The notes beneath the pieces were generated by a model. The model was not told where the DNA came from, did not search any database, and worked only from the letters and a program-made list of their open reading frames with translations. Positions 37,548 through 62,400 of a stretch of 64,000 nt of DNA are shown here, piece by piece (the stretch's first letter is position 1; each line of letters starts with the position of its first letter). The stretch is taken from NCBI GenBank assembly GCA_965649825.1, contig OZ287697.1:1722351-1786350 (forward strand), read 5' to 3'. Both the position numbers and the translations under genes were made by a program. This DNA is from Penicillus capitatus. Lineage: Eukaryota > Plantae > Chlorophyta.

Positions 37548-38274
37548 GAGGTGCACCGTCGGCTTTGTAGATTGACTGCGACGTGGTTGTCGTTGCTTCA
37601 AGTGTCGGCGGGCTGTTCGACGGCGCCTCTTGCGTACGACAGCTCTGTCGGCGTGTGACACGAGGCGTGGACGTCGCGTGCGCCATGTAATGCGGTCGCG
37701 TTACCGCGATTTGCGATGCGAGTACTAACAGCGCTTGATGTGACTTGAGTTCTCTTAGAAATGCACATCGTGGGCAGTTTGTGTCACACAGAAGGATGGA
37801 CGTTGGGTGAATCAGTTCGTCCACGACAGGCTTTGACCCTTATTACTCAAGGCCCGCTCGGGAGGACAGGTTCGCGACTGGATACGGCGCTTCGCTGTGC
37901 ATTAGCATGGAGACGCTGCCGTCATCGCATTCCTCCCACTATCGGTGCTCCGAAGATGGCGATACTGTTGCCAGAACTGAGACCGATAGTACGTTCTTCC
38001 GGTAAAATCGTCTCCAGACAGACTGCAAAAACAGATGACGAGAACAGGTTAGGCGTGTGAAATCGGACAAGGGAAATGCCAGCGAACTCCAATCCTCCAA
38101 CATCGTCACAGATGCGACCTCAGACTTGGTTGTTCTGAGACAGCAACGGAGGAACTTGTGGATTCACGTTGCACGCACCCGCATGCTGGTTCATAACTGC
38201 TCCAGAAACGCGTTCCTGACCCACTCTGTTTCTCCATCAGAGGCTCAGCTCCATCCACCAAATTCGCTTCCAAG

Positions 38275-41200
38275 ACAGAAGCGTTGTCGCCGCACGGAAG
38301 ACAAGGCAGTCCGCCGGGGACGAAACCTCGTGCCGGCGACGGTCGACGACGCGCCCAGTGCGCACTCACTCGCCGTCGACGCACGACAGGTCTGTGCTCG
38401 AGACTGGGTCGCCTGTTTGCCTCGCCTGTGTAGTCCATTTGCCCGAGTCTCGACTTGTCGACAAAACGAGACGGTGGATATCATCACAGCACGTTGGATA
38501 TTATGTGGACAGAGCGGCAGCATGCTGGAACGTGCTTCCACGGAAGGCCGTCATGTGTGGTCGCTGTCGCGCCAGCGCTGATGACCCCAGTTGCGTCAAG
38601 GGGCACCTACACTATAAAGCCCCTGACTTCGATTTGATCAAGCACACAGCACGAGTCAAAACCTTCTACACTGCGAACAACATGCGAGCGAAGGCTGAAT
38701 CAGTTTGTTCGGCCCTGTTGATCATGAGTACTACCTTCGGCCTCGTCGTCGGATGTGCGTTGACGGCCTCGACGTTGACGCACGCAAGGCATGCACCGAC
38801 ATCATCGCTTTCCGGTGACAGCATGGTTTACTGCTTCGTCACTCACCTGGCTGTTGGTTCTTAACTTCGCAGAACTGGACGACGAGCCTGTTGTGCCCGT
38901 TCCTAGTGCCAAGTCTGTATCGTTCAAACCAACCCTACAGCCTCAAGTACGTCTACCTTCTCTGCACAAGCAACGCGGAGAGGGTCCTATCTCGGCGCCC
39001 AGGGAAGAAGCGACGCGCGGACCCTTCGCCAAGTGAGCCAAGATGGCAAGGCGACAGCAGGTTCGTTCCATTCGCTGTCACGTCGCGCCTCGTAGCTGAC
39101 TGTGCTGTCGCGTTTTCGCTAGAGGTCGCCTGTCGTCTGTCGAAGGCGAGGCGTCGCCGTTATCTGAATGCCAAGACGAGAGAGTGGTTGCTCAACTCGG
39201 CAGTCCTCGACGAGATACAAGACGACCTCCAGCTCATCGTCAACTGTTCTCGACCGGGAGACGTGCTGCTGCTCGACACCACGAAGACAATCCGGCCTCC
39301 TTTACGCACCGTCATCTCATGGCCGCTGACGATCAGCGGCTACGTCCCGGGAGGAGAGCACGACAGGGTCAACACTGCTGCCTCGGAGAAGCGAACCATC
39401 CTCGTCTGTCCGCAGATGAACGAAGGACTGTTCACATTTCGGTAAGCTCAGACTCTATCCGTCCTAATGATGTTAGATGTGTTCGCTCGCAGGACCACTG
39501 ATGTCACTCTGACGGACCTTGTCGTAGAAGGGTGCCTATTCGTCGTTTCTGGCACATCGGAGTCCGTCATCGGCTTCGAAAAGTGTGACCCTAAAGCCAC
39601 CAGGGGACTCACTGGGGGAACCATTCGGCTAGATCGCATCGGATTCAGAGAGAATCGTTTTCTTGGCAGATCAGTTGCCATCCAAGCGAACGCGTCATCC
39701 TGCTCAAAACTGGAGATCGAAGATTTCTACTTCCAGAAGAACACCTGCAATGGAGTCTGCGGTCTTCTTCTCGCCAAAGCGAACAGGCTCCAGAACATCA
39801 CCATCAGACAGAATCGACGAATATCATCGCTCAATGGAGTCAACGATCTGCTTCTGACCGAAGAGAACAGACTTCAGAAACTTTCCATGGAACATTTCCG
39901 ATCGATACCATCCTTATCTTCCAGATCGGTGATCATTTGGGCACCTCCTCGGTCCTCGACATCTGCCGAAAACATCAGTGCTTCGGAGAATAGTTGTGCC
40001 ACAATCGAGGTCGACGGAGGCTCCTTCGGTCTGTCAAACAGCATCTTCAGGAAAAACGCGGCAACCGATGAGGAGGGAGACGACTCCATCAGTGCCTGTA
40101 TCAAGATGAAAGACGCATCTGCTGTCATCCGTGACTGCAGTTTCGAGGAGAACGAAGCAAGTTACGGTGTGGCGATCAATGCTCGAAGATCGAACATCAC
40201 TCTCGAAGATTGTGCATTCCGTGGCAATGTTGCTGGGATGGACGGGACCATCTATCTCCGGAATAGAAGTTCCTTGACGATCGACTCCTGTCGGTTTTCG
40301 CGGAACAGAGCCGAGAAGTCTGGTGGTGCAATCTATGCACAGAATGCCGAACTGAGCGTCACACACTTGACCTGTGTGCAGAACAACGCTACACTGAAGG
40401 GAGGGTGTCTGCACGTGGCCGGGTTCGGCTCAGTGAAGATGACCGACTCTGTCCTGAAAGGAAACAGAGCTCGCTCAGGCGGCGCTCTACATCTCAGAAA
40501 TACATCAGCAGCAATCGACAGCTCGAAGTTTTTATCGAACCGAGCTGAAAAACTGGGAGGAGGAATCCGTTCGATCGGCTCAAACATCACTGCAAATGGA
40601 ATCATAGCTGACGGTAACCACGCTGAATATAGAGGTGGCAGTGTTTCGATCGCTTCAAGATCCAATCTCACCGTGCACGACTCAGTCTTCAAGAACGGCG
40701 CCAGTTCTAGGGGAGGAGCAGTCGAACAGAGTGAGAACTCTGTGGGAAGGTTCGGCAATGTGACCTTCGTGGACAATTTGGTTGATGAGGAAGGAGGCGC
40801 CATCTTTGCGGATAACGCGACAGTGATTATTCATAACGCAAGATTCAGAAATGTTAGATCTGGTACTCAATCGTATCTCTCAGGCCGAGGCGGCTTTCTA
40901 TTCGCGAGGCATCACAGCTCAGTTTTCGTCGAACATGCAACGATGACAAAAGTAACTGCGGGAAATGGCGGGGCGATCTTCTTAGAAGATTCCGTCTGCA
41001 CGGCAAAGCAGCTAAACGTGTCAAAGTGCACTGCAGTATTTGCTGGTGGAGCAGTAGTCGTTGGAAGTTCTGAATTCCTCTGCACAAACTGTCTTTTTGC
41101 TTCGAATACGGTCTCGACTATTGGCGGAGGTGCCATTTATATCACTAAAAACAGACGCCGCAGATCTATTGTCCAATTACAGGAGAGCAAAATAATAAAC

Positions 41201-43266
41201 AATAGTGGGAGATGGGGAGGTGAATCTACTAAATCATGCATTGATGGAGCATCTTTATTGGTTTGTTTCGTAGGGGGTCTTCATGTTTATGACAGCCGAA
41301 AGTGCTTAAAAGACGTATACAAATGCATTGCTGTAGTTATCATTGACACTCAGTTCGAGGGAAACAGTGCCTATGAGGCTGGAGGAGCGATCTTTGCAGA
41401 CCGCTTGGAAAACATCAGATTTCAGTGCAACTCGTCATCCAAGAATGGCAATCTGAAATTCTTGGAAGAAAAAGAATGGAGTTCTTTGAACCGTATTACA
41501 CCCGACACGACTCTCTGTCCTGCGTGGAAAAACAATTCTGCTGGCATCTACGGGGAGGTTGTTGGTACAATGGCCACCATGGCGAAGATGACTGTCGAGT
41601 ACAAGGGAGAGAAAACAGAAGTCTTGACTGGAGAAGGATTCGAAGTTCGAGACTATGTCGGTGGCAACCAGCTGCCAACGCTGTCAGTGGAAATGCTGGA
41701 TGAACTGAAACAGGGTCCGGCGAACGCCAACACGATCGGTCCGGATGGTATGGCTACATTGACAGCATCAGAAGGGTTTCAAGTTGGCAGTTCTTCTCTG
41801 TCTGTGGAAGGACAGACTGCCAACTTTCCTCTTCTGATCGGTTTTGGATTGCCGGGCATCTACAACATGACAATTAGATTCGCGAGGCACGAATGTGCTG
41901 GAGATCATAACAACAGCGCATTTGTCGATCCATTAACCATCACCGTCCATGTGCGAAACTGCACTGTTGGTGAAATGCCCGTCGGTGAGACGAAGATCTG
42001 CAGCAACTGCAGCACCTCTACGTACAACTTCGACCCTGAAGCAGAAGAATGTCAGCCCTGCCCTGAGAACGGGAACTGCAAGACAAGAGTGATCGTTCCG
42101 AATGATGGATACTGGCACGCGTCTCCCTGTTCCGTCAACATTACGAGGTGCCTGACCTCGTATGCATGCAAATTCGACGATCGCGATGAGAGATTGACAA
42201 ACCTGACAAGAGACATGAAGAACTGCAGAATCAACGCTACCACAGTTGAGGAGTATCAGCAAACTCAGTGTGCTGAGGCGAGTGATTGGTCAGCCTTTTG
42301 ATCTTCTGAGTCTTTGTGTTCTGGGATTCAGGGCCACACGGGTCCTCTCTGTGGAGCATGCAACACCTCGTATGGATCCTCCGTGTCTTCCAGATGCGAA
42401 GAATGCCCCACGGCATTCGGCAATGTCATGACGATTTGCTCTGCGACAGTGATCCTACTTATTCTGTCCGGTGTTACGATCAGAGGGACACTGAGTACCG
42501 CTAGCAGCAGACTGGCGATGCTTTCCGGCCATCGAAGAGTTCCCCGCAGTATTCAGCTCAGAGATCTTTCGCTTCCAGCCGAGCCAGAAACGTCTGAGAT
42601 ACAGGCGTCCCAGGAGGAGTCGCCTGCGATCCAAGACACGAACGAATGTCAAGAAAGCCTGACTGTCACCGAAGTGACCCTGGGACAGTGGAGAGCGGTC
42701 GAGATGTTTAAAGTATGAAGCTATGTGGCATTCGTGAGACTGACAGTCTTCGTTGCAGATAATGTTGAACTACGTTCAGATGACAGTGCTGATCGCATCA
42801 CTGGATGTCGGATGGGCAGTTCCTATACTTGTCATGGCAGAGATATCAGGTCCGCATCTGCGAAAGCTGACAGAATGTTTCCACCCTTCATCGTTGTGTG
42901 CTGCACAGAGTTCTTTGGAGGATTCGCGGTGGACAGTACCCGACGTTCTGTTGTTTGTTTGGGCGGACACGACCAGTCACTGCATCCAACCGCATGGGCC
43001 TTTGTCGTGAGTGTCTGTCTTGTTCCTGCATGTGTGGCGTTGGTGTTCATCGTGTTCTGGATCACAGTTGCACCATTTCATCAGATCCGTCGTCCGGTCC
43101 GCTACGTCATGCAGAGATCTCTGCTGTCTCTGATGGCTCTTTGGCATATTACTTCTGTTCCGGTGATCAAGACGACTCTGAGCACAGTCCTTTGCGTCGA
43201 CGCCTACAATGTTCTGCATGCGACGCCGGAGAAGGATGATGAGACGACCATAGATGGGACGAAAGG
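38275..43266. repeat. Recent segmental duplication, copy at 59006..64000
   Basis: Offsets are 20731 and 20734 bp. ORF translations are identical outside 40832..41765, and looser similarity extends left to about 37460/58194. Confidence 0.92.
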
Positions 43267-44005
43267 AGAGATGGTCAGCTACTGGGCAGTTGACACAAGT
43301 CTGAAGTGCTTCGAAGAGGATCACCGGAGGCTGGTGGTTCTGATCATCTCGTTCGTCTCCCTCGTCTACGGTGGACTCCTGATCGCCTTCGTCGCCATCC
43401 TTGGATTCTCAGAAGACCGGCTGAACGACACGGACAGCTGGATCTACCAGTCTGTGGGATTCCTCTACCGCAGCTACGGACACGGGAGGCGTCGCTACTG
43501 GGAGCTTGCAATTGTGGCAAGGAAAGCAGGGATTGCTTTCCTGGTGTTCTGCAGCCATCGCTTCGACAGCGTGCTGCCCATCTTCGGAGCTGCCGTCTTC
43601 CTGACGCTTGCCGTGAGTGTACAGATTGTGGCGATGCCCTACAGGCAGAGTTTCGACGACCTGAACAAGATCGACACATTCTCTCTTTTCGTGTCGCTTC
43701 TGACGACACTTCTTGCAGCCATGATGAAGAGTGAGAGTCCTACCATTGATGCTGGTCGCTCAGCTATCTCATTTCTGTTTGTTTTCCTCAACATCACGGC
43801 TCTCGCCGTTCTGCTCTCGTTTCTTTTTCGTTACTCCGTTGCCTACGTTAGACTCTCCCTGAGAGAAAGCGGAACGAGAGTGGATTCTGATGCCACTGCG
43901 CTGCATGTGCTGGGGATCTGGTTGTCTTGTATGACTCGGAATCTGGCTGTTCTTCTTGGGTTTTCCAAGCACGATGACAAGTCGAGCATCTGTTCCGGCA
44001 TGTGA
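38682..44005 (+). CDS. Pmp-like beta-helix / Cys-rich / multi-TM protein (unit 2 copy), multi-exon
   Basis: Start MRAKAESVCSALLIMSTTFGLVVGC. Introns 38815-38872, 38948-39003 and 39061-39123 restore the frame into the N-cap. Main exonic ORFs are 39467..42301, 42314..42718 and 42725..44005. Confidence 0.87.
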
Positions 44006-46017: not shown

Positions 46018-46246
46018 TGTCAGTAGAAGTTGGCTCTTACTTCGTGACTGCGTCGTTATTTAGGGGTTCCATCTTCCAAGAGGCACTCATGAGTGGTTCA
46101 TGTCATCTCAGGGTTCCTTTTCTATGGCTCTGGGAAGTGGGTGACTCATCTGCCTAGACAAGTCATGTCACGTGCACCGTATGAATACGTGAAATATGAA
46201 CCTGTAGATACCTTTGCCCTGTAAACGTGAAAGCATTCCTCTGACA
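46018..46246 (+). mobile_element. Solo LTR (229 bp) related to the satellite-element LTRs
   Basis: Termini are TGTCAG...CTGACA, with flanks TCATG/ACATG (4/5 TSD match). It shares TTTTxTATGG..CTGGG...GA.TCA.CTGCCTAGACA with the 55656..55921 LTR. Confidence 0.65.
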
Positions 46247-46296
46247 ACATGACAGTATGATGATTAAGATGAAAGAAAATGATGACGTGACAAGGG

Positions 46297-46519
46297 TGTC
46301 AGAAGGAGTGAAGCCGTCCCAACGTGACTGCCTCGTTGTCTAAGGGTTCTGTCTCCGAAGGAAGGCCTACACGAGGTTTACGTTAGCCCATGGATCCTTT
46401 CCCGTGGTCCCGATAGGCCGGTGACTCATCGGTCATGTCGCCTGTGGCATACAAATATGCGAACGTAGACCATTTTTACCTTGCTCTGTAAAACAATTCC
46501 TCTGACATGGTTTCGGAGC
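46297..46519 (+). mobile_element. 5' LTR plus PBS of a truncated LTR element
   Basis: TGTCAG...TTCCTCTGACA (46297..46507) is similar to 46018..46246 and is immediately followed by TGGTTTCGGAGC (46508..46519). No partner LTR was recognised. Confidence 0.7.
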
Positions 46520-47365
46520 TAAGACAACGCTTATCGTTCTGTCTTCCTGACTTTGTCCACATTTCACAACAGTATTCCTCAGAGCTGTCGCATAATACGT
46601 AAAGACGACCCTGAACGTCGAAAACATTGATTGTGGTTCACAGAGTGGATCTTTCATGTGATCCGTGTGTATCTTTTTTTTGCTATTCGAGAACCTGAAC
46701 CGAGTTCTCAATTACACTGGGAGACGACCGGTGAGGACGATCCCAGCCAACACTCCTAGTGCTTAAGTGCATGTATTGTATCTTAAAACGTCACGGTCGA
46801 AACAGAAATCGCAGTCGGACTGTTAAACATCGCCGTTTGGTGTTCCATTGTTTTCCCGGCAAATGCGATTTCTTTTTTAGTCTATGTATATGTGTCTGCT
46901 TGTGTTTGAGTCATTCTCAATTGTCTCTTTAGATCTGTCAACGCGTCTTCTTTTCTAAGGCGTGTTAGCCGTTACATCCTGTCGATAATGTGTGACGTGT
47001 AATGGAAGGCGGAAAAGCTCACGTGATGCGAAAGAAATCTTTGCGACCTTGACGTGTGGATTGATTAGACTCTACGGCATTCTCTCAAAGAGATGTCTGC
47101 GAGGTTAGGGAGATTGAACATCTCTTCGGCGAATGCGGTCGTCTCGTGTAGACAATGATGAGTGACTGTCCTGTGAAAGAGGTTCGGGTCGATGCGCGCA
47201 TTCAGACACAGCTTCAAAGAAAAGAGTGGTGCCGTATTTGATTAATAGACAGTTGGTAGATGGATTTGACAAAGCCTGGTTGCAGAAACCCTTCGACGAA
47301 TCATGCTTCATTGTTTGGACAGCAACCGGCAAACAACACCCAACAACGCCGTCCACTTCAGACGG

Positions 47366-47598: not shown

Positions 47599-47777
47599 TG
47601 TCAGACTAAATGAGCACAATGAAGGCATCCCGACGGCATAAGAGAAGTCGCATCAGAACCTACTACATGTCACATCAAAACCCTAGCACTATAAAAGGGG
47701 GACAATTGCGTTGTTTACGTCATTCTGTTTTAAAAGTCTTCCGCTAATGCGTGTGTTTGTTCACCTACGACGCGACA
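47599..47777 (+). repeat. 5' LTR of the Gypsy element
   Basis: TGTCAGAC...GCGACA, with TATAAAA at 47690. I counted 7 substitutions versus the 3' LTR (about 96% identity). Confidence 0.95.
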
Positions 47778-47789
47778 TGGTTTCGGAGC
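47778..47789 (+). promoter_or_regulatory. Primer-binding site TGGTTTCGGAGC (initiator-Met-tRNA-like)
   Basis: It abuts the 5' LTR and differs at two positions from the plant tRNA-iMet PBS TGGTATCAGAGC. Confidence 0.85.
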
Positions 47790-47800
47790 ATCGATCCAAG

Positions 47801-48154
47801 ATGCGACGTTGTTTCTATGTTCTGGCAGCCCTACTTCTATTCGGGCTCGGTGGAGTTGGAGGTCAGGCGGAGGCTAAATCCACCCTGGACCGGAAGTTGA
47901 AGATGGACGACGAGATCAACTTTCAAGATCTCCTGGAGGCGATTAAAAACAATCAAGACGCAACGGAGAACTTACAAGAGGTTGTTGACAATATTGTGGA
48001 GATCGTATCCGTTCTGGCGGCAGACGCTGCGGCCGCTAAGGCGGCAAAGGAGGAAGCCCAGGGTTTCGATGTCGAGCTGGAATTCACATCGGAAACGTGG
48101 CATTGCGTCAAGGAATGTCTCCGTCTTTTTTTCGAGGATGCTATGAGCTCATAG
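47801..48154 (+). CDS. Retroelement ORF1: signal-peptide-like N-terminus plus acidic coiled-coil-like segment
   Basis: MRRCFYVLAALLLFGLGGVGGQA-EAKS. It overlaps ORF2, which lies in the -1 frame, across T TTT TTC (48127..48133). Confidence 0.7.
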   Translation: MRRCFYVLAALLLFGLGGVGGQAEAKSTLDRKLKMDDEINFQDLLEAIKNNQDATENLQEVVDNIVEIVSVLAADAAAAKAAKEEAQGFDVELEFTSETWHCVKECLRLFFEDAMSS

Positions 48155-49488
48155 TCGGCATCGTGGGTCGATTGGGCATAGCGTGGAATCAAGGAGACTT
48201 TGTTACAAAGTCTCCGTTGACCTTCATGATATACAACACGGTATGCACCATACCGGGTGCCGTTCGAAATGCTGTGTGGTTCGTGGTCCAAGTATGGACT
48301 GCGTACAACGCCCTACGTAGCTGGTTGAGGGGAAGCCCTAAACTTGAGAAGGGCGAAAAGATGAACGACTCGATTGAAAGTTACGAGGAACTGACGCAAG
48401 TCCGTCGGTATCGAGAAGAAAGACTCCAAGACTTCGTCGACAGACTTGTCACGAAGTGGAAGACCCTCACACCCAAGATCTCAGACGCAAGATTCCTGAG
48501 AGTGTTGAAACAACATTTTCCCCGAGAATTCCTGCAAGGCCTGCACGATCTCAATCTTGACGAAGTGAAGGTGAATACAGTGATCGAAAAGTGGAACAAT
48601 TTCTGCAAGTGGACAGCCCCTCCGGCGAACAGAGCAGCTCCCCGGGCAACGCAGCCCACGGCAGCGAGAGTGCAACCAGTCAGAAGGGATGCGAGACAAA
48701 ACCCGCAGCAGGGACAGCAGCAGGGACAGCAGCAGGGACGACAAGACGAGAGGAGGTGCTACAGATGCAATCAGCCAGGGCACTTGTTTGCCCAGTGCCC
48801 TTTGAATGCCCCGGGTCGCTATAACCGAAGGGCAGTTCAGGAAGTTAATGTACCAGAAGGCTACGAGTTGACACCTGCCCCATACAACGCCCAGTGGGAG
48901 CAAGAGGGACGATGCGATCGAGAGCCACCGTCGCCGTGTGCACAGTGCGGCGAGCGCCATTGGACTAGCCATTGTCCGAGTCGTCAGCCAAGTTCGAGCT
49001 CCCATGCAGAAGCAGAGGCACCGAGACAGGTCTTTCACGACGAAGGGTCGGACACCGAAGAGAGCACTCGTCGCACCGAGAGCGTGAGCGTTTTCTCGAT
49101 TGCAAAGACAGGGACTCCCTTTATTGCGAAGAAGATCCACATCACGTTCCAGTTCACGAACAGGGACAAGAAGGTTCAGCCGGTGAAGGCGTTGGTTGAC
49201 ACCGGTAGCTGCGCAAATGTCGTCTCATTCTCGGCGCTTCAGAAGTTGGGATACGCTAAGACCGACCTCATACATGACGCAAAAGTACCTTCAGCATTAG
49301 CCGGGTTCGCAGGCGAGGACGCCAGAACACTTGGAGGCATCTTCCTCAAGGTGCGCCTGGGAAGCGTCACCCGCGATATACCGTTCATCGTGATGAACGA
49401 CGTCCTGACGCACTGCATCATTGGTATGCCGGCGATTGACGCATTTGACCTCCACATCCGTGGACGGGCACGTGCAGTGTCTTTTTAG
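48097..49488 (+). CDS. gag: Retroelement ORF2: hydrophobic segment, Gag (two zinc knuckles) and aspartic protease
   Basis: Motifs are YEELTQVRRYREERLQDFVDRL (gag-like), CYRCNQPGHLFAQC, CAQCGERHWTSHC and ALVDTGS...IIGMPAI (protease). Confidence 0.9.
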   Translation: MALRQGMSPSFFRGCYELIVGIVGRLGIAWNQGDFVTKSPLTFMIYNTVCTIPGAVRNAVWFVVQVWTAYNALRSWLRGSPKLEKGEKMNDSIESYEELTQVRRYREERLQDFVDRLVTKWKTLTPKISDARFLRVLKQHFPREFLQGLHDLNLDEVKVNTVIEKWNNFCKWTAPPANRAAPRATQPTAARVQPVRRDARQNPQQGQQQGQQQGRQDERRCYRCNQPGHLFAQCPLNAPGRYNRRAVQEVNVPEGYELTPAPYNAQWEQEGRCDREPPSPCAQCGERHWTSHCPSRQPSSSSHAEAEAPRQVFHDEGSDTEESTRRTESVSVFSIAKTGTPFIAKKIHITFQFTNRDKKVQPVKALVDTGSCANVVSFSALQKLGYAKTDLIHDAKVPSALAGFAGEDARTLGGIFLKVRLGSVTRDIPFIVMNDVLTHCIIGMPAIDAFDLHIRGRARAVSF

Positions 49489-52330
49489 AACATCCTGCCG
49501 AGGAGGGCGACTCTGCAGGATTCCGCGTGGTACAGTTGTGGGAGACGGAGAAGGGAATCCGCCCTTTTTGTAGACAGAATCTCATCAAGTTCCCGTTAGG
49601 CAAGACCAAGTTTGTCCCACCGCGTGAGTGGGTCAGTTACAATTTTCCTTGGGCCGTTCGTGGGGATCTGTCGTCTGTGTCTTTTCATTGCTCTCTGAAC
49701 AGATGTCCTTTTCTTGCGTTTGTGACCGTCTCTGACTCGGGACAGTTTCGTCTGAACATCTACAACACATCGAACGAGGCTCAAGTTCTGCTAGGGAGCA
49801 CCTTTGCATGCAACTTTTGGTATTCCGGTCGGATGCGGTGCAAGTTTTTACCCCTCTGGAATAAAGGGGATGGCGAGGATCGAGCAGTCAAGGCCGTGTT
49901 TTCAGTCAGTGGTGATATGTTTTCCGAGTTCCCCGAAGTTTTTGATGATGGGACCTACTGCGTGACGCCTGCGATGAAGGCTTTGCGCGTTGACATCCGA
50001 GAGTGCCGTCTGAAAGGTGATCCGACGTTCATGGGCGAGCGTACCTGTCCGAAGATCGACCACCTAGTCCCCGAGCAGCGCATTCGAGAGGAGATAGATT
50101 CCTTTTTGCGAAAAGGCTTCATCGAGCGTGTGAAGTCGAGTGACGAGGGTTTCCTCACGCCTATCTTCTTCTTGCCGAAGAAGGATGGAAAGAAGATAAG
50201 GACACTCAATAACTACCGCAAGCTTAACGCGATGTGTGACTTTTCGTCGGCGACATTCGTCGACGCCATGAGGACGATGCGGTCCATACCGAGGATCTGG
50301 AAACACTTCAGCAAGCTGGATCTGGCGAACGCTTTTTTCAGTGTGGGGTTGAGCCGCGAAACGTCGAAACTCTTCGGGTTCAACATCTTCAACGAGACGT
50401 ACGTGTGGAGGGTGATCCCCCAAGGTTTCGGGTGGAGCCCTATTTGGTTCGTCGAACGAGTGAAGGACATTCTGCACAAGCTCCCCGTCGTTGTATACGC
50501 TGACGACGTGCTCGTTGGAGCCGATTCGGAGGCTGAGCACAACCGAATTCTACGGTTGGTGCTGCAGAGGTTCGAGAGGTTCGGTCTGCGTTTGAACAAG
50601 GACAAAGTTATCATCAATGTTCCCGAAGTTGACTTTCTCGGCTTCCGCGTCAAAGGAGGCGGTTTCAACCTGAAGTGTTACATGGAAGAGAAAGCGACCA
50701 AGACACCGAAGCTTGAACACTACAAGCAACTAGAGAAGACGATCGGTGCCCTCAACTTTTGCCGGGCGCATGTCCCGAATCTGAGCAAGAAGATGGATAT
50801 GCTTCACTCGGCCAAACAGAGAGCCCTGAGGTGTCCAGCCGACTGCGATGAAGCATGGTGGAAGGCGATCAACGAAAAGGTCAGAGAGATATGGGTAGAC
50901 GTAGTGCGAAGCGGCGTCGAACTCAGTCTCGGCGGGTCATTCGACTCGTTTGAGCTCTATGTCGACTGGAGCGGCCCGCATCGCGGATACGTCCTATTCG
51001 GCAAGTGCGATGCCGCGAGGGAAAAGCGCATCGTTGCCGTGGGATCTGCGAAGGACCCGATCCCCCACCAGAGTTCCTTTCTAGGCGAGATTCGGGCAGT
51101 GAAGTGGGCTCTTCAACAGACGACACAGTTTCGAGGAGCCATCAAGACGAAGACATACGTCGACAACAAGGTGGTGGTCGATGGCCTGAACAAGGGGATT
51201 GCGGCGTTCTGCGATGACCGAAGGTGTGCTCGAGTGTTTGCCTTTATATGTGAGAACGAAGGAAACGTGATGTTCTCCTATTTACCTGGAAACCTGAACC
51301 AGATAGCCGACCAGCTTTCCCGATTAGACTCGGGTGGACTTACGCAACAGCCCTTAGACAAGGCGATCATGGCGATTGACCGCCCCGCGGAACAGGAGAT
51401 CGAACGCAGGATACGTTCCGCCCATTTCGGACACTGGGGATACCTGACGACGCTCCAGAACCTGCTCCTCGAGTCGGAGAGGTGGCCAAACATGGAGCGG
51501 GACGTACGCAACTTCGTGTCGAGCTGTCCGAACTGCGCCTTCAACGGCGAAGAGCAAAGGAGGGATGTCCCGAGCACCGAAATATCTCGCAGAATCGGCG
51601 AGAGAGTGTCCATGGATCACTGTGGGCCATTTTTCGACGGATCGCATATCCTCGTAATCGTGGACGACGCGACAAAATGGGTAGAGGCTCTGAGAACCCC
51701 AGGAACTGGAGCCGTGCACGCCATGAGAGCGTTGGATCAATGGCAAGCAAAGCACGGAAGGATCGAGCTGCTTTGCACGGATAATGCAAGCGCTTGGAAC
51801 TCAGACACCTTCCGAAGATGGGCAGCAAGCCGACGCATCGACACTAGGAGAAGTCCGAGTTATCACCACCAGGCCAACGGATTGGCAGAGCGCACCATCA
51901 AGACGCTGTGCGAGCGAATCAGGCGCTTCATGAATGGGTCGACGAGGGCGTGGCCCAAAGCGATACAAGGAGCCGTAGACGCCATCAACACATCGTGGAG
52001 TTCAGTGACTAAGACCACGCCGCAGTCTCTCATGCTAGGCATTGATCGCAACGGCGCATTGCTGGATGACGAAACAAGCCGAAAAGCTTGGGAAGATGCG
52101 TGGAGAAGCGCTCAGCTCGCCAAGACGTACAAGCACGAGCGATTCAAGTGGAAACACCCGCGGCTGTCGAAGCCACTGCGTGTAGGCAATCGGGTGCTGA
52201 TGAAGAATTACCACCGGTCGAATCACCCGCTCGGAAAGCTGGGCCCGAAGTGGATCGGTCCCTTTATGATCGAAGAGCAGAGATCGGAATCGACCTGGAT
52301 CGTGCGAGAGGGACGAGGCTTACCGCCTGT
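49449..52330 (+). CDS. pol: Retroelement pol (RT, RNase H, integrase), interrupted at 52330; last 13 codons at 55998..56037
   Basis: RT motifs NNYRKLN, KLDLANAF, PQGFGWSP and YADD; RNase H-like LYVDWSG...GEIRAV; integrase HFGHWG...CPNC, MDHCG, TDNASAW, NGLAERTI; GPY/F motif KWIGPF. The frame is open from 49449, -1 relative to ORF2. Confidence 0.95.
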
Positions 52331-54057
52331 TGTCGCGCGGAGGCGCCGAACGAAACGATAACAAACAGCGGAAGTCTTACAGTGTTCGAAGCAAGGTCTA
52401 CAAAGACTCAGATTGTCCATTAAATACTTGCGCGATGACGCGACTTGACAAGGCAGGTGAATCACCCTAGCCTCAGAACCAGAGAAAATGGCCTTGGGTG
52501 ATTCAACCAAGACCCCCCAGGATATGGCCTCCTCAAAAACGAGGCAGTGTCATATCGCTCGGCGACACCACGCTTCCCGCCAAACTCCGAAAAACTGCAA
52601 GCAAGCCCCCACGAAAACAACAGAAGGAAATCAGTCTATGCCCGAGGTGAATCGTCGCAGCGCCGAGAAAATGGTCCATCCCGAAGATGATGATGCTTCT
52701 GTGTTTGGTTCCCCCTCTCTCTGCTGCGCATCCGATATCGTCGGATCCACTGACTCGACCGCATTAATCCGCGCTTGCGGACAGTCCTTGGCCAGATGCC
52801 CCTTGCATCGGCACACATAACATATCCGACCGCGCTTGATGGCACCTCCGTCATCATCTGCCGCGTCGGTTGCTCTCGCCCGTCGTCGGCGCGGGAACCG
52901 CCCAATGTCGTGCAAAACGCGCTTCATCTGATGCAACGTCTTCACGGTTCTCCGTCCTTCTGCCGGTCTTGTCGTCATCAACTCAGCCGTCCTTTCGCCG
53001 TTCGTCCGTACGGTTTCCTGCAGAGTCTTCACCTCGGCGGCCAAAGACTGTAGACATGGCACCAAATCAGGTGCCGAAATAAACTTTTTCTTCGCCTCTG
53101 TGAAGGCGGCATCAGTCTCTCTAAGCTTCTCATGGAGAGAGGAGGCTTCCACGCGTGCCTCGTTTGCATTTCTCTGTGCCTCAACGATACCTCGTTCTGC
53201 CTCGGAAAGCTCTTGTTGAAGCTTTTGTTTCTGCTCCTGCAGATTCTCATTTCCGACCATCAAACACTCCATCTCGTCGCTGGCTTCACTAGCTTCCCAT
53301 TCGGCCTCACTGGCTCGTCGTTGTGCACATTGCAGCTCCCGTTTCAATCGTTCATTCTCCTTGTGCAAACGTCCCGTCGTCACTTGCAAATCCCGTCTTT
53401 CTTGTAGTCGCGGACAAACGTATCTGATGAAGTCGACCAGTTCGCCCGCGTCAAACAAAAAACTCTCAGGGCGCTGGCCGCCCACCACGTTAACCCGACC
53501 CCACGTCCACACCTTATGACAACGAAGCGCACCAGGGTACAGACCCTCCTCCTCCTCCAATTCTCTGAGCAAACTCGGTCCGTAGACAGTGTTGCCATAA
53601 TACCCGGTGAAACCTTCCCCTCCTTGACCTTGCTCTGCTCTTCTTTCTCGTCGCCCTCGACTCATCCTTGCTCCTGACTCTTGAAATTCCTAGGTATGTC
53701 TAGAAAATGTCTAGACAGGACTCGACTTCCCCGAAGTAAGCGCTTTAGTGCACACAGCACGCGCGCAACGTCACTGAGACGGAGTTCAAACTGAGGAGCG
53801 TTATCTCAGCTCCGAAACCACGTCGCGCGGAGGCGCCGAACGAAACGATAACAAACAGCGGAAGTCTTACAGTGTTCGAAGCAAGGTCTACAAAGACTCA
53901 GATTGTCCATTAAATACTTGCGCGATGACGCGACTTGACAAGGCAGGTGAATCACCCTAGCCTCAGAACCAGAGAAAATGGCCTTGGGTGATTCAACCAA
54001 GACCCCCCAGGATATGGCCTCCTCAAAAACGAGGCAGTGTCACATCGCTCGGCGACA
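52331..54057 (-). mobile_element. Non-autonomous LTR element A (1727 bp), antisense inside pol
   Basis: The 237-bp LTRs 52331..52567 and 53821..54057 show 2 differences. The PBS is at 53820..53809 and a PPT-like GGCGGGAAGCGTGG precedes the 3' LTR. The TSD CCTGT is at 52326-30 and 54058-62. Confidence 0.92.
52631..53665 (-). CDS. Element A single ORF: unknown N-domain, coiled coil, CCHC zinc knuckle
   Basis: A 344-aa intact ORF with a heptad-rich ERLKRELQ...EARVEASSL segment, CYVCRCKGHLAKDC and a C-terminal FTSGID. Confidence 0.85.
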   Translation of the reverse strand: MSRGRRERRAEQGQGGEGFTGYYGNTVYGPSLLRELEEEEGLYPGALRCHKVWTWGRVNVVGGQRPESFLFDAGELVDFIRYVCPRLQERRDLQVTTGRLHKENERLKRELQCAQRRASEAEWEASEASDEMECLMVGNENLQEQKQKLQQELSEAERGIVEAQRNANEARVEASSLHEKLRETDAAFTEAKKKFISAPDLVPCLQSLAAEVKTLQETVRTNGERTAELMTTRPAEGRRTVKTLHQMKRVLHDIGRFPRRRRARATDAADDDGGAIKRGRICYVCRCKGHLAKDCPQARINAVESVDPTISDAQQREGEPNTEASSSSGWTIFSALRRFTSGID

Positions 54058-54176
54058 CCTGTTGTTAAACGTTGCTTCAGAAGACGCAGTAAAGTTCTTA
54101 AAGAAAGTTCGTGCGCAGAAGTTACAAATCTAATCGAATCTCTTTTTACTTATACGCATGATGTGATGTTACCACC

Positions 54177-55921
54177 TGTCGGCAAGATGGCGTTTTGCTG
54201 ATGTGACTGTCTTGTTTTCGATGGGTCCACATTCAGGGGGGGGCTTGGTTGAATCACCTAAGGCCATTTTCTTTGGTTCTGAGGCTAGGGTGATTCACCT
54301 GCCTAGGAACGTCGCGTCACCGCGCACATACATAAGGACACATTCTGAACACTCAGGACCTTGCTCCAAACAGTTTGTAAGTCTTCCGCTGTGTTAATCT
54401 TTCGTCCGGCCCGATCGCCGACAGTGGTTTCGGAGCGTGTATACGTTCCTCAGTTGGGGCTCCGTCTTTGTGACGTTGCGTGGCTGCTCTGTGCATTGCG
54501 CTCTCCTACGTGGAGAACGAGTCCTGTCTAGGCGACTAGACGCACCAAGGAAAGCCCCAGGGACGGCAGTTGAGGGATGAGTCAAGCACGAATAGAATGG
54601 ACAAGGGAGCGAGGTCGAGAGGAGTGTTATATCTACGAGACATACAAGAACGTCGCGAGCATGCTCGCGCATATGGGTCAAGACGATGGCCTCAGCCCTA
54701 GCCTTGCGGGAACACCGGTGCTGGCAGGCTCGGTGCTGGCGGGCATCTGCAATGAGCAGCCTCATTTGCAGTACGTGGTGGCGGACGGGGACATAGCTGA
54801 TTTCCTTAGTTATGTTTGTCCGCGACTGCAAGAAAGACGAGACCTGCTAGGGACGACGGGACGGTTGCGCGAGGAACGAGAGCGGCTGCGCCAGCGGGTG
54901 GCGACCGTCGAGGCCGAAAAGGAACAGCTGCAACAGCAGCTGCGGCGTGAACAGCGAAGGATATCCGAGGCAACGGCAGAAAACGATCGGCTGTCAGGCG
55001 ACAACACGAAGCTGCGACATGACATTTCCAAGGCAGAACGAGGCATCGTCGAGGCACGACGAGACGCAAACGAGGCACGCGTAGCAGCCTCCTCTCTACA
55101 GAAGAAGCTCGAAGAGACAGAGACCGCCTTCGGAGAGGCAAAGAAACTTTGGTGTCTAGTCTTCGGTCGTTGTCCACAGAGGTGAAGGCACTGCATGAGG
55201 AAGTCCGGACAAGTGGCGAAAAGACAATCGAAGCGGTGGTGAGGAGACCACCAGAGGAACGACGGAATGGGAAGACTCTACGCCAGATGAGGAGAGTGCT
55301 GCATGACATCGGACGGTATCCGCGGCGACATCGAAGAGGGAGGGCAGCCGGCGCAGCTGACGATGGCGGGGAAGCCACGAAGCGCGGCCGAGTCTGCTAC
55401 AGCTGCCGGTGCAAGGGGCACCTGGCGAAGAACTGTCCGCGGGCGCGGACAGACACGGTTGCGTCAGCGGAGCCGACGGGATCGGATACGCAGCCGAGAT
55501 CCGACATGGCGACAGAGTTGAATACAGCATCAGCGTACTCAGGGCTCAAGATCTTGTCCTTTTTCCGGCGGAATTTCACCTCGGGCATCGACTGAACATT
55601 AGTAATTGTGTTTGGGGGGCCTTGCATCTGTTTTCGGAGTTGGCGGGAAGCGTGGTGTCGGCAAGATTGAGGTGCTGATGTGACTGTCTTGTGTGGGAGG
55701 GGGCCACCTTGCTCTGGGACACTCGGGGTCGTGTCATTTGAGGTTTTGGGCCGAGAAGAGGCCTTTTTTATGGTCCTGGGGCAGTACTGAGTCACCTGCC
55801 TAGACATGTCGCATCACAACGAGGGTATTTAATGGGACAATCCGAACCATGTTTACCTTGCTCCAAACAGTTTGTAAAGTCTTCCGCTGTGTTAATCTTT
55901 CGTCCGGCCCGATCGCCGACA
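54177..55921 (+). mobile_element. Non-autonomous LTR element B (1745 bp), same family as A
   Basis: LTRs are 54177..54423 and 55656..55921 (TGTCGGCAAG...CGCCGACA), the PBS is at 54425..54436, and the TSD CCACC is at 54172-76 and 55922-26. Confidence 0.9.
54577..55595 (+). pseudogene. Element B ORF, homolog of the element A ORF, broken by a frameshifting deletion near 55147
   Basis: ORFs 54577..55185 and 55149..55595 together align to the A protein (YVCPRLQERRDL, CYSCRCKGHLAKNC, FTSGID). About 19 nt present in A are missing. Confidence 0.8.
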
Positions 55922-55997
55922 CCACCGTGCTGAGCACGGGACGATGTTCAGTAATAATCTTCATTACTTGCCTTCATCATCCCATCTCGACACCTGT

Positions 55998-56142: not shown

Positions 56143-56321
56143 TGTCAGACTAAATGAGCACAATGAAGGTATCCCGACGGCATAAGGGAAGTCACATCAG
56201 AACCTACTACATGTCACATCAAAACCCTAGCACTATAAAAGGGTGACAATTGCGTTGTTTACGTCATTCCGTTTTAAAAATCTTCCGCTAATGCGTGTGT
56301 TTGTTCACCAACGACGCGACA
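56143..56321 (+). repeat. 3' LTR of the Gypsy element
   Basis: A 179-bp near-copy of 47599..47777. Confidence 0.95.
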
Positions 56322-57006: not shown

Positions 57007-58284
57007 TTAGTCAGCGACGTCGAGGGAAAGGTAATCTGATTGCTTCCGTTTCTCAACAAGAAGCCAGGAAGATTGACTTCGCAGAGGCCATCGAGCTCTG
57101 TCAGCGTGCATGGTCCAGGTTGATGACTCGACGTCCGATCTCAGTGTTACATCAAGTCTCTTCAGTCCTGTCAAGGACAACAGCACACTGCGGAAGCCCT
57201 CGCACGCTTCAGCAGTCCCCAGATGCACACCGAGAGAATGCAGCCGAGAGTACGTTTCTGAATGGAAGAGCTGAAGATCGCCGCCGTCTGTCCCGTCGCC
57301 GAAGTAGTCCAGTCGCTCCAGCCGCGTCATTGAGGTCAGACCGGCGAGCCGCCGGGCAACGTCGAGATCTTCGGACGGAAAACTGGTTGAACAAGAGAGC
57401 TCGACGGCGTTTGGAAAAGCGGTCATTAAGTCAGAGACGTGTTCGGAAGACACCTGTCTAAGCTTGACGGGCAGAGACTTGCAAGTTGCGTCCCTTTGTC
57501 GACACACGCGGCGGTACTCTTGAATGCCATCGTCGAGAAGATAGCCGAGTACTTTATGAAGGTGTGAAGAACTTCCTCCGACACTTTCTCCCTGCACCTC
57601 TCTTTCGACGTCCTTGGCCTGGACGACGCGGATTTCCCCCTCGTCTTGACCGGGGGGCGGAGGAGGAGCATTGTCGCCGGAGTCGTTCCCGTGTTGGCTC
57701 AGCTCACAAGCGCGGCGGAAGTCTTGAAATTGGATGAGGATGGGCGATAGTTCGAAGGCCACACAGACAGCGTTTCAGCAAAGGGCGACTTGTTACAACT
57801 GAGAATAGACAGCGAATGTTTTGCAAGGTATAAACAGAATGTATGCGATTCACCGATGACAAAGGAACTTGATCGTCAAACGAAAGATGTCTTTATGTGT
57901 CGAAGCCTTGCTTAAATACTCAGACCCTGATGTGACGACAGGAAGAGTCGATGAACTTCAAGAGTGAGTTTGCAATAAGATTCTCAATTAGACTAGGGAA
58001 TTCAGTATGAACTTCTAGAAGTTTCCTAGGAACTTCTCAGGAACTCACTCCCAGTCATCACGACTTGTCTGCGACTCAGCCGTGATGGTTACTTTTGCAT
58101 AGCCAAAGACCCGACAAGTGCTAGGTGACAGAAATGTCACTATTATATGGACGTCCCATCACCTCTTCGTCAGAATTGCGCCATTCTTTCACAGAAGGAA
58201 CCAATCCTCGTCCAGCAAGAGGCCAATGCAATTCCAGTGACTGGACTGCGGTCGCCTTTCGCCGGAAACATCACGTTTTGCCAT
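57007..58284 (-). pseudogene. F-box-like/LRR pseudogene (unit 3 copy) split by a solo LTR
   Basis: The N-terminus MAKRDVSG...DEDWFL is at 58284..58194 and continues HKVLGYLLDDGIQEYRR at 57562..57007. Similarity is lost beyond about 57007. Confidence 0.85.
57563..58193. mobile_element. Solo LTR, 631 bp, unrelated to the nest LTRs
   Basis: TGTGAAGA...TCTTTCACA termini, with the 5-bp TSD GAAGG at 57558-62 and 58194-98. The empty site TGAAGGAAC is visible in the paralogs at about 18901 and 37457. Confidence 0.9.
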
Positions 58285-59412
58285 GAGGTGCACCGTCGGC
58301 TTGGTAGATTGACTGAGACGTGGTTGTCGTCGCCAGATTGTCGTCGCGCTGTTCGACGGCGCCTCTTGCGTACGACGGCTCTGTCGGCGTGTGATACGAG
58401 GCGTGGACGTCGCGTGCGCCATGTAATGCGGTCGCGTTACCGCGATTTGCGATGCGAGTACTAACAGCGCTTGATGTGACTCGAGTTTTCTTAGAAATAC
58501 ACATCGAGGGCAGTTTGTGTCACACAGAAGGATGGACGTTGGGTGAATCAGTTCGCCCACGACAGGCTTTGACCCCTACCACTCAAGGCCCGCTCGGGAG
58601 GACAGGTTCGCGACTGGATACGGCGCTTCGCTGTGCATTAGCATGGAGACGCTGCCGTCATCGCATTCCTCCCACTATCGTGCTCCGAAGATGGCGGTAC
58701 TGTTGCCAGAACTGAGACCGATAGTACGTTCTTCCGGTAGAATCGTCTCCAGACAGACTGCAAAAACAGATGACGAGAACAGGTTAGGCGTATGAAATCG
58801 GACAAGGGAAATGCCAGCGAACTCCAATCCTCCAACATCGTCACAGATGCGACCTCAAACTTGGTTGTTCTGAGACAGCAACGGAGGAACTTGTGGATTC
58901 ACGTTGCAAGCACCCGCATGCTGGTTCATAACTGCTCCAGAAACGCGTTCCTGACCCACTCTGTTTCTCCATCAGAGGCTCAGCCCCACCAAACACGCTT
59001 CCAACACAGAAGCGTTGTCGCCGCACGGAAGACAAGGCAGTCCGCCGGGGACGAAACCTCGTGCCGGCGACGGTCGACGACGCGCCCAGTGCGCACTCAC
59101 TCGCCGTCGACGCACGACAGGTCTGTGCTCGAGACTGGGTCGCCTGTTTGCCTCGCCTGTGTAGTCCATTTGCCCGAGTCTCGACTTGTCGACAAAACGA
59201 GACGGTGGATATCATCACAGCACGTTGGATATTATGTGGACAGAGCGGCAGCATGCTGGAACGTGCTTCCACGGAAGGCCGTCATGTGTGGTCGCTGTCG
59301 CGCCAGCGCTGATGACCCCAGTTGCGTCAAGGGGCACCTACACTATAAAGCCCCTGACTTCGATTTGATCAAGCACACAGCACGAGTCAAAACCTTCTAC
59401 ACTGCGAACAAC

Positions 59413-62400
59413 ATGCGAGCGAAGGCTGAATCAGTTTGTTCGGCCCTGTTGATCATGAGTACTACCTTCGGCCTCGTCGTCGGATGTGCGTTGACGGCCT
59501 CGACGTTGACGCACGCAAGGCATGCACCGACATCATCGCTTTCCGGTGACAGCATGGTTTACTGCTTCGTCACTCACCTGGCTGTTGGTTCTTAACTTCG
59601 CAGAACTGGACGACGAGCCTGTTGTGCCCGTTCCTAGTGCCAAGTCTGTATCGTTCAAACCAACCCTACAGCCTCAAGTACGTCTACCTTCTCTGCACAA
59701 GCAACGCGGAGAGGGTCCTATCTCGGCGCCCAGGGAAGAAGCGACGCGCGGACCCTTCGCCAAGTGAGCCAAGATGGCAAGGCGACAGCAGGTTCGTTCC
59801 ATTCGCTGTCACGTCGCGCCTCGTAGCTGACTGTGCTGTCGCGTTTTCGCTAGAGGTCGCCTGTCGTCTGTCGAAGGCGAGGCGTCGCCGTTATCTGAAT
59901 GCCAAGACGAGAGAGTGGTTGCTCAACTCGGCAGTCCTCGACGAGATACAAGACGACCTCCAGCTCATCGTCAACTGTTCTCGACCGGGAGACGTGCTGC
60001 TGCTCGACACCACGAAGACAATCCGGCCTCCTTTACGCACCGTCATCTCATGGCCGCTGACGATCAGCGGCTACGTCCCGGGAGGAGAGCACGACAGGGT
60101 CAACACTGCTGCCTCGGAGAAGCGAACCATCCTCGTCTGTCCGCAGATGAACGAAGGACTGTTCACATTTCGGTAAGCTCAGACTCTATCCGTCCTAATG
60201 ATGTTAGATGTGTTCGCTCGCAGGACCACTGATGTCACTCTGACGGACCTTGTCGTAGAAGGGTGCCTATTCGTCGTTTCTGGCACATCGGAGTCCGTCA
60301 TCGGCTTCGAAAAGTGTGACCCTAAAGCCACCAGGGGACTCACTGGGGGAACCATTCGGCTAGATCGCATCGGATTCAGAGAGAATCGTTTTCTTGGCAG
60401 ATCAGTTGCCATCCAAGCGAACGCGTCATCCTGCTCAAAACTGGAGATCGAAGATTTCTACTTCCAGAAGAACACCTGCAATGGAGTCTGCGGTCTTCTT
60501 CTCGCCAAAGCGAACAGGCTCCAGAACATCACCATCAGACAGAATCGACGAATATCATCGCTCAATGGAGTCAACGATCTGCTTCTGACCGAAGAGAACA
60601 GACTTCAGAAACTTTCCATGGAACATTTCCGATCGATACCATCCTTATCTTCCAGATCGGTGATCATTTGGGCACCTCCTCGGTCCTCGACATCTGCCGA
60701 AAACATCAGTGCTTCGGAGAATAGTTGTGCCACAATCGAGGTCGACGGAGGCTCCTTCGGTCTGTCAAACAGCATCTTCAGGAAAAACGCGGCAACCGAT
60801 GAGGAGGGAGACGACTCCATCAGTGCCTGTATCAAGATGAAAGACGCATCTGCTGTCATCCGTGACTGCAGTTTCGAGGAGAACGAAGCAAGTTACGGTG
60901 TGGCGATCAATGCTCGAAGATCGAACATCACTCTCGAAGATTGTGCATTCCGTGGCAATGTTGCTGGGATGGACGGGACCATCTATCTCCGGAATAGAAG
61001 TTCCTTGACGATCGACTCCTGTCGGTTTTCGCGGAACAGAGCCGAGAAGTCTGGTGGTGCAATCTATGCACAGAATGCCGAACTGAGCGTCACACACTTG
61101 ACCTGTGTGCAGAACAACGCTACACTGAAGGGAGGGTGTCTGCACGTGGCCGGGTTCGGCTCAGTGAAGATGACCGACTCTGTCCTGAAAGGAAACAGAG
61201 CTCGCTCAGGCGGCGCTCTACATCTCAGAAATACATCAGCAGCAATCGACAGCTCGAAGTTTTTATCGAACCGAGCTGAAAAACTGGGAGGAGGAATCCG
61301 TTCGATCGGCTCAAACATCACTGCAAATGGAATCATAGCTGACGGTAACCACGCTGAATATAGAGGTGGCAGTGTTTCGATCGCTTCAAGATCCAATCTC
61401 ACCGTGCACGACTCAGTCTTCAAGAACGGCGCCAGTTCTAGGGGAGGAGCAGTCGAACAGAGTGAGAACTCTGTGGGAAGGTTCGGCAATGTGACCTTCG
61501 TGGACAATTTGGTTGATGAGGAAGGAGGCGCCATCTTTGCGGATAACGCGACAGTGATTATTAATCACTCCAGATTTAGGGATGGAGCTGCTACTTCGCC
61601 TTATGGCTGGAATTATGGTGGTTTTCTATTAGCGAGGAATCACAGCTTAGTTTTCGTGGAACATGCAACGATGACAAATGGAACTGCGCGACATGGCGGG
61701 GCGATCTACTTAAAAAATTCCGTCTGCACGGCAAAGCAGCTAAACGTGTCAAAGTGCACTGCAATATTTGCTGGTGGAGCAGTAGTCGTTGGAAGTTCTG
61801 AATTCCTCTGCACAAACTGTCTTTTTGCTGCGAACACGGCCGAGTCTGGCGGAGGTGCCATTTCGATCGATACATACCGACCCCGCAGATCTTTTGTCCA
61901 ATTACAGGAGAGCAGAATGGTAAACAATAGTGCGAGATGGGGAGGTGAATCTACTAAATCATGCATTGATGGAGCATCTTTATTGGTTTGTTTCGTAGGG
62001 GGTCTTCATTTAGACGAGGTATACCATTATTCACGATTGTTGGATGATGGATACGAATGCACTGCTGCAGCAATCATTGACACTCAATTCGAGGGAAACA
62101 ATGCCACTCAGGCCGGAGGAGCAATCTTTGCAGACTGTTTGGAAGGCATCAGATTTCAGTGCAACTCGTCATCTGAAAATGCCAATCTGACATTCTTTGG
62201 AGAGAAGGACCTGAGTTCTTTGCGTCGTATTACACCTGACAAAACTTTCTGTCCTTCGTGGAAAAACAACTCTGCTGGCATCTACGGGCAGGTTGTTGGT
62301 ACGTTGGCCACATCGTCAAAAATGACTGTCGAGTACAAGGGAGAAAACACAGTTGTCCTACCTGGAGAAGGATTCGAAGTTCGAGACTATGTCGGTGGCA

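Follow-up and report, generated by a model that had tools for sequence, protein, structure and literature searches.

A cytosolic capsid of two domains is generally regarded as a constant of LTR retroelements and retroviruses. The mouse IAP element derives from a retrovirus and keeps MA-CA-NC together with a short hydrophobic N-terminus, and its Gag is reportedly targeted to the ER by SRP. It is described as an Env-less retroelement whose Gag goes to the ER, where its particles form and accumulate (PMC12776083). The glyco-Gag of MuLV (gPr80) is presented as an extra, CUG-initiated isoform of type II topology that is made beside the normal Gag (PMC3042739). According to PMC3945221, SRP brings the Gag of Ty1 to the ER although no signal is recognisable in it, and a Gag fragment consisting of the CTD only, p22/p18, is reported to exist (PMC8458377). 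Membrane proteins have also been tied to Ty3/Gypsy elements: the position of env is described as variable, including an ENV-GAG-POL order in two mites (PMC13524379), the membrane protein sORF2 is linked to such elements (10.1101/2025.03.14.642691), and the Drosophila gene Gagr is a gag that has been domesticated and carries a membrane domain (PMC8956099). As these three sources present them, the proteins are encoded by ORFs of their own and have F, gB or FAST-like features, or are the product of a host gene.

The locus considered here lies in a 64,000-nucleotide stretch of Penicillus capitatus DNA (hereafter, the window) and is a broken copy of a divergent family of Ty3/Gypsy-like LTR retroelements. 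With Ty3/Gypsy elements (Metaviridae) it shares LTRs ending in TG...CA, a PBS-like motif, a Gag with a likely CA-CTD and a CCHC knuckle, the order PR-RT-RH-IN, 5-bp target duplications (in nested relatives) and a Pol profile that scores best on Ty3. Unlike them, the window family has a Gag with a predicted signal peptide, a predicted lumenal coiled coil and a candidate membrane helix, apparently has no CA-NTD, and encodes its protease in frame with Gag, pol following in a shifted frame; its RT is very divergent. In contrast to IAP, which it resembles in the predicted destination of Gag, the family has a predicted cleavable signal, an ectodomain of 100-150 aa, a separate candidate membrane helix and a seemingly truncated capsid. 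Like glyco-Gag, it has an ER-targeting segment ahead of Gag sequence, but the segment stands on the only evident Gag, and capsid and NC are predicted to be cytosolic, opposite to the topology of glyco-Gag. A predicted ER/SRP route for a retrotransposon Gag and a capsid reduced to its CTD recall Ty1 (PMC3945221, PMC8458377), whose Gag, however, has no recognisable signal or membrane helix, whose p22 is an inhibitor rather than a structural Gag, and which is of the Copia type. Where the Env, sORF2 and Gagr proteins stand apart, the window family has a predicted small helical ectodomain fused in frame to the capsid of its own Gag.

The element and its relatives

Two LTRs with TG...CA ends bound the copy (Table 1), and inspection of the 5' LTR reveals a TATA-like box near 47691. 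No priming tRNA for the PBS-like motif was found in a search covering less than the whole genome, the polypurine tract is weak, and the flanks of the element do not match each other, so that there is no target-site duplication. Because only about 105 nt separate the pol stop from the 3' LTR, an env gene at the 3' end would not fit; no separate env ORF with an F or gB ectodomain occurs in the element, and the N-terminal module of 100-150 aa lies in the Gag frame.

Table 1. Features of the retroelement copy, with positions counted from the first nucleotide of the window.
Feature	Position	Strand	Remarks
5' LTR	47599..47777	+	TG...CA, 179 bp; 96% identical to 56143-56321 by self-comparison
PBS-like motif	47777..47789	+	motif start 47778, directly after LTR; common to four elements in the window
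ORF1	47801-48154	+	after PBS-like motif
Predicted signal peptide	47801..47875	+	basic n-region, hydrophobic core, A-x-A site
Acidic predicted coiled coil and CxxxC helix	47876..48132	+	predicted lumenal; Cys 48104-48118; ORF1 frame
T7 run	48126..48132	+	one-base frame offset relative to relatives
Slippery heptamer U_UUU_UUC	48127-48133	+	canonical, in correct frame
Two RNA hairpins	48138-48184, 48193-48215	+	strongest local fold in the element
Amphipathic helices	48142-48186, 48271-48315	+	hydrophobic stretches of the initial annotation
Candidate single transmembrane helix	about 48211..48264	+	after invariant Trp; between the two amphipathic helices
Capsid C-terminal domain-like region	48361..48612	+	31% identical to P0048 domain
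CCHC zinc knuckle	48757-48798	+	Pfam zf-CCHC, E 7e-4
Second knuckle-like motif	48937-48975	+	from sequence
Aspartyl protease	49177..49434	+	Gag frame; Pfam Asp_protease_2, E 2e-5; ORF end 49488
Zinc-knuckle and protease ORF	up to 49488	+	-1 frame relative to ORF1
pol: ~150-aa domain, RT, RNase H, integrase	49449..52330	+	-1 frame relative to Gag-PR; Pfam RVT_1, RVT_3, Integrase_H2C2, rve
Nested LTR element block	52331..55992	.	3.66 kb, by self-BLAST; splits integrase C-terminus
Displaced last pol codons	55993..56037	+	translates to PVLVHSSQIKPYLT*, matching P0004 end
3' LTR	56143..56321	+	96% identical to 5' LTR

Homologues were collected as two close intact sequences, then 12 representatives (the window's two ORFs included), then three more. 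P0002 is an intact homolog 88-92% identical to the window copy, and P0003 is 57-64% identical. The named relatives come from Caulerpa lentillifera only, in which one family has an RT 59-61% identical and another a Gag 31-41% identical to those of the studied element; siphonous green algae are on these grounds the likely hosts of the family. The two kinds of similarity fall in different Caulerpa elements: P0044 and P0052 have the most similar Gag, yet a distant RT (35%), and P0010 and P0012 have the closest RT (59-61%) with a Gag that has no CTD, and gag and pol may therefore have been exchanged between lineages. The second Caulerpa family shows a weak link to the N-terminal module (hhalign E 0.11; profile E 5e-4, for P0013 only).

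The Pol profile matched Ty3 Gag-Pol best (169 bits), followed by foamy virus (115 bits) and orthoretroviral RTs (60-80 bits); when a single RT sequence was used, unlike the profile, the best match was foamy virus. Placed by match scores, the element is Ty3/Gypsy-like but divergent. Searches with the locus of metagenome contigs and viral contigs returned no matches, and the ESM Atlas held no usable match for P0002 or P0035, a result that says nothing on absence or novelty. No description of such a retroelement family was found in the open-access literature (Repbase-type entries fell outside this search); the main text of PMC11441479 has no LTR-element content, which its supplement may list.

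Predicted signal peptide, candidate membrane helix and predicted topology of Gag

The initial annotation recognised a signal-peptide pattern at the start of the first ORF. We find this pattern in place, with ATG 47801, preceded by the 179-bp LTR and the PBS-like motif, opening MRR, a hydrophobic core and small residues, and we find it kept in relatives that are 26-57% identical to ORF1, contrary to what would be expected had ORF1 been unconserved among copies. The N-terminal hydrophobicity of P0002 was equalled by 42 of 10,000 shuffles of the same protein, and by one of 84 other first-Met ORFs of at least 100 aa in the window, a comparison that leaves out ORF1 itself, which is scored there from an upstream ATG. 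On a crude, hand-coded dG scale, 12 of the 14 proteins scanned have an N-terminal hydrophobic window with dG <= 0.6; of the two that do not, one is an N-truncated call and the other a decayed copy. The cleavage site proposed earlier, GQA|EA, fares less well: the small residues are present, but the relatives align better with AEA|KST, as judged by eye.

Two further ATGs lie upstream in the Gag frame, one inside the 5' LTR at 47747 and one at 47777, where the last LTR base and the PBS together read MVSE. Extensions of 8 or 18 residues from these ATGs would leave the signal near the N-terminus. Since the Caulerpa relatives P0053 and P0035 also begin with MVSE and three JGI relatives begin with MVAK, a start on the LTR/PBS junction may be a habit of the family; in P0003 a different frame runs through the PBS. 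In several relatives translation seems to pass through the primer-binding site, the LTR end and PBS forming an in-frame ATG.

Behind the predicted signal, the two cysteines of the CxxxC pair are invariant in all eight aligned relatives, and low-confidence models place a long helix in this middle domain (AlphaFold on a 2-sequence alignment gave pLDDT 41). A trimer prediction for the N-terminal module, in which the alignment went unused, scored 0.24 against a mark of 0.32. A cleaved signal that is not followed by a stop-transfer segment would carry both nucleocapsid and protease into the lumen and so separate them from RNA; the model set out below therefore needs a second hydrophobic segment. 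The two post-junction stretches to which this role had been assigned do exist, but they are amphipathic (moment 1.2-1.7 in P0002) and would make poor membrane spans, and we rejected them in favour of the segment that lies between them. This segment is non-amphipathic, and on the same crude scale it scores better than any of three cytosolic Pol controls (best dG 2.0) in 10 of 14 proteins. It is weakest in the window subfamily, where P0002 and P0068 score dG 3.0 and 3.1, worse than the best Pol control, where no post-junction segment has dG below 2.7, and where the helix of the window copy is marginal and contains prolines. The second Caulerpa family, in contrast, has a clear membrane span (dG -2) at the matching position. 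The distribution of charges, a basic n-region in 9 of 10 proteins, an acidic middle in 10 of 10 and a basic region past the helix in 9 of 10, follows the positive-inside rule as a type I protein would, a topology read from crude hydropathy. Glycosylation sequons are not conserved among the relatives, and neither a fusion peptide nor a myristoylation motif is evident in Gag.

We regard membrane targeting of Gag as a real and conserved trait of the family. The idea of an ER- or membrane-targeted Gag thus gains support from the conserved signal pattern, but the version with a secreted ORF1 product does not hold family-wide. We consider it fairly probable that the family's Gag-PR, a single protein in relatives, is of the signal-peptide, single-pass type I class of ER-membrane proteins, and that particles assemble on the ER membrane and would bud into the ER. 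The signal peptide would send the acidic coiled-coil domain of 100-150 residues, with its CxxxC pair, into the ER lumen co-translationally, until one hydrophobic helix halted the transfer, leaving the basic amphipathic helix, CTD, zinc knuckles and protease on the cytosolic side, able to bind RNA and Pol. Gag-PR would thereby gather element RNA and Pol at the ER membrane, and budding into the ER is then a reasonable inference. For the cell-to-cell spread that had also been suggested we find no support; the host is likely a single multinucleate cell.

The capsid-like domain

The earlier recognition of a short capsid-like region ahead of the zinc knuckles agrees with the fold predicted for a homolog. 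Sequence comparisons gave little here, since Pfam returned no capsid or Gag match in nine family proteins, nor for the CTD alone, and a search of PDB sequences with the Gag profile returned only matches with E >= 0.37. In an AlphaFold model of P0048 built on an 8-sequence alignment, block-mean pLDDT reached 82-92 over the last ~80 residues only. When this CTD model was compared with 48,161 chains, ranks 1-10 were all retroelement capsid domains (Copia, PEG10, Arc, PNMA2, Ty1-type, RSV and MOAP1; Z 6.8-8.3), nine of them with rmsd 2.6-4.6 over 74-86 residues, and the Ty3 CA-CTD and Ty1 p22 structures were also among the matches. Foldseek E-values were all >= 0.1, and Z scores of 7-8 are borderline for helical domains, but the best-ranked matches agree with one another and the region lies ahead of the zinc knuckle, so that 48361..48612, whose fold was modelled on this homolog, likely corresponds to a CA-CTD.

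The candidate membrane helix is separated from the CTD by 35-44 residues in seven relatives and by 189 in P0048, a difference from which we suspect that most of the family has lost the capsid NTD. Directly before its CTD, P0048 has a further 145-150 partly helical residues beyond the N-terminal module. Several Foldseek alignments to whole capsids run to 147-155 columns, longer than the CTD, with high rmsd, and suggest that this insert could be a CA-NTD, though module and insert are modelled at pLDDT 35-60 only. No CTD motif was found in P0036 or P0013, and the second Caulerpa family likewise shows no CTD.

The same stretch of protein can be read differently. If the N-terminus were an uncleaved or aborted ER anchor, as in IAP, with the rest of Gag cytosolic, the helices from the CxxxC pair to the CTD would be a divergent NTD and the capsid would be complete. 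The two quoted stretches have the amphipathic character of helices in soluble bundles, the window subfamily has a marginal membrane helix, about 90 helical residues before the CTD come close to the length of an NTD, and IAP Gag particles are reported to accumulate in the ER (PMC12776083). We nevertheless hold this arrangement to be unlikely: P0048 has the N-terminal module in addition to its 145-150 residues, translocation and cleavage are the better fit to a basic n-region and A-x-A sites, and the second Caulerpa family has its clear span at the matching position.

Under the preferred model of a type I membrane Gag, the lattice contacts that an NTD normally makes would come instead from anchorage in the membrane and from the coiled coil on the lumenal side. 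A half-capsid coat protein of the ER membrane would be an unusual design for a retrotransposon particle. It is possible, but we offer it tentatively, that an LTR lineage of siphonous green algae fused a small envelope-like ectodomain to Gag, that the membrane scaffold then replaced the capsid stepwise, and that enveloped vesicles, with a single type I membrane Gag as their building block, bud into the ER and travel within the endomembrane system of a giant cell with many nuclei, between these nuclei or into gametes; the proposed capsid series would run from full (P0048) through CTD only (the window family) to none (the second Caulerpa family). If true, a membrane scaffold can take over the compartmentalisation of reverse transcription, with graded loss of capsid domains among members, and the family would provide a natural series for how Gag first became coupled to membranes, apart from the myristoylated matrix and captured env. 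Because intact members occur in Caulerpa lentillifera, which is cultured and sequenced, localisation and electron microscopy are feasible.

Frame breaks, remaining readings and nested elements

The initial annotation noted a -1 junction, which falls at the T run. The offset is present in the DNA, but it is not common to the relatives: of 20 examined, 18 cross the junction in one chain (P0002 and P0003 read through it), one ends before it, one begins at the CTD, and none breaks there. These 20 are what remains of 26 scanned proteins with Gag regions, from which most redundant cluster members had been left out, once the two ORFs of the window copy and four members of the second Caulerpa family are subtracted; some are near-duplicates, and eight had built the profile. 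A secreted ORF1 product accompanied by a frameshifted Gag-PR is thus not borne out as a family feature, the relatives being single-frame, and the break most likely represents a frameshift found in this dead copy alone.

An assembly error was rejected as its source, since read contigs carry the window form. Two of three runs from one study contained this form, free of differences, together with an in-frame form that diverges by about 8%, in contigs that begin 22 nt to the left of the T run, which is below the 31-nt bridging rule, and that may derive from the source sample. The depth of the window-form contig was 74.5 against 79-95 in neighbouring window-specific contigs (run X1) and 37.7 against 36.9 (run X2), values compatible with a single copy or very few, although depth is no copy number. 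We read the offset as a real frameshift, private to the window copy or a small subfamily, that probably reflects decay; as such it is of less interest than the membrane-targeted Gag.

Within the window subfamily the T run might instead be a site of programmed -1 shifting or slippage, yielding mostly a secreted ORF1 product and, in smaller amount, a membrane-bound Gag-PR. The slippery heptamer is in frame and is followed, beginning 5 nt downstream, by hairpins whose fold (z -3.56, reached by 1 of 200 shuffles) has the lowest z among 224 windows of the element, so that two products can be contemplated for this subfamily alone; the read contigs with the window form speak for a genuine sequence. 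We judge such a site quite improbable, with the offset in none of the 20 relatives, a depth that fits one or very few copies, an element otherwise dead from nested insertions, and two shifts needed to reach Pol.

Less probable still is that the whole of Gag-PR enters the ER lumen by its signal peptide and is then retrotranslocated with no stable anchor: the membrane helix is weak in the window subfamily and yeast Ty1 Gag offers a precedent (PMC3945221), but that Gag is described in the same source as having no recognisable signal sequence, and most relatives of the window copy have a usable stop-transfer segment with a charge switch. That Gag starts at ATG 48361 as CTD-NC-PR, like Ty1 p22, the upstream part being untranslated or a decayed captured gene, we practically discount, for although this ATG falls exactly at the start of the CTD and p22 structures are among the fold matches, the Met is present in one of eight aligned relatives and the upstream part is conserved as a single-frame protein down to about 26% identity. 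By the same count, the family has no extended isoform beside a conserved normal Gag start, as glyco-Gag has.

At the junction of PR and pol the situation differs. Gag-PR relatives generally stop past the protease, with pol called separately, and a read contig bridges the junction of the window copy without differences; this offset is therefore likely to be a real programmed frameshift, and no strong RNA fold lies 3' of it (z -0.97). Pfam gives the order PR-RT-RH-IN, with a weak match for RNase H (E 0.011). Between protease and RT, a domain of about 150 aa (49500-49910) is conserved in all relatives; it has no Pfam match, and looks dUTPase-like by eye only.

The nested block consists of two LTR elements in tandem inside the integrase gene, at the same 5-bp target CCTGT (52326, 54060 and 55993), with a third nested element at about 54170-55921, and a contig of run X2 passes directly from 52325 to 55993 in a form that does not have the block. 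Repeated insertion at one 5-bp site hints at a target preference. The ORFs of the nested elements (52634-53689 on the minus strand and about 54574-55595 on the plus strand) encode a coiled-coil and zinc-knuckle protein only, with no pol and with no hydrophobic signal in this Gag-like protein. These elements have the same PBS motif, their read-contig depth is far above that of the pol-bearing element, and they are likely to be its abundant non-autonomous partners.

Upstream, at 46018-46520, two related short LTR-like repeats of the form TGTCAG...CTGACA are followed, past the second, by the same PBS motif (46508), and the studied element may itself have inserted into another element. A block of host genes occurs in three copies, at about 18500-25100, 37000-44000 and 57100-64000, which are 83-99% identical in parts; a tested piece has no Pfam match, and the block encodes repeat proteins with a multi-pass membrane C-terminus.
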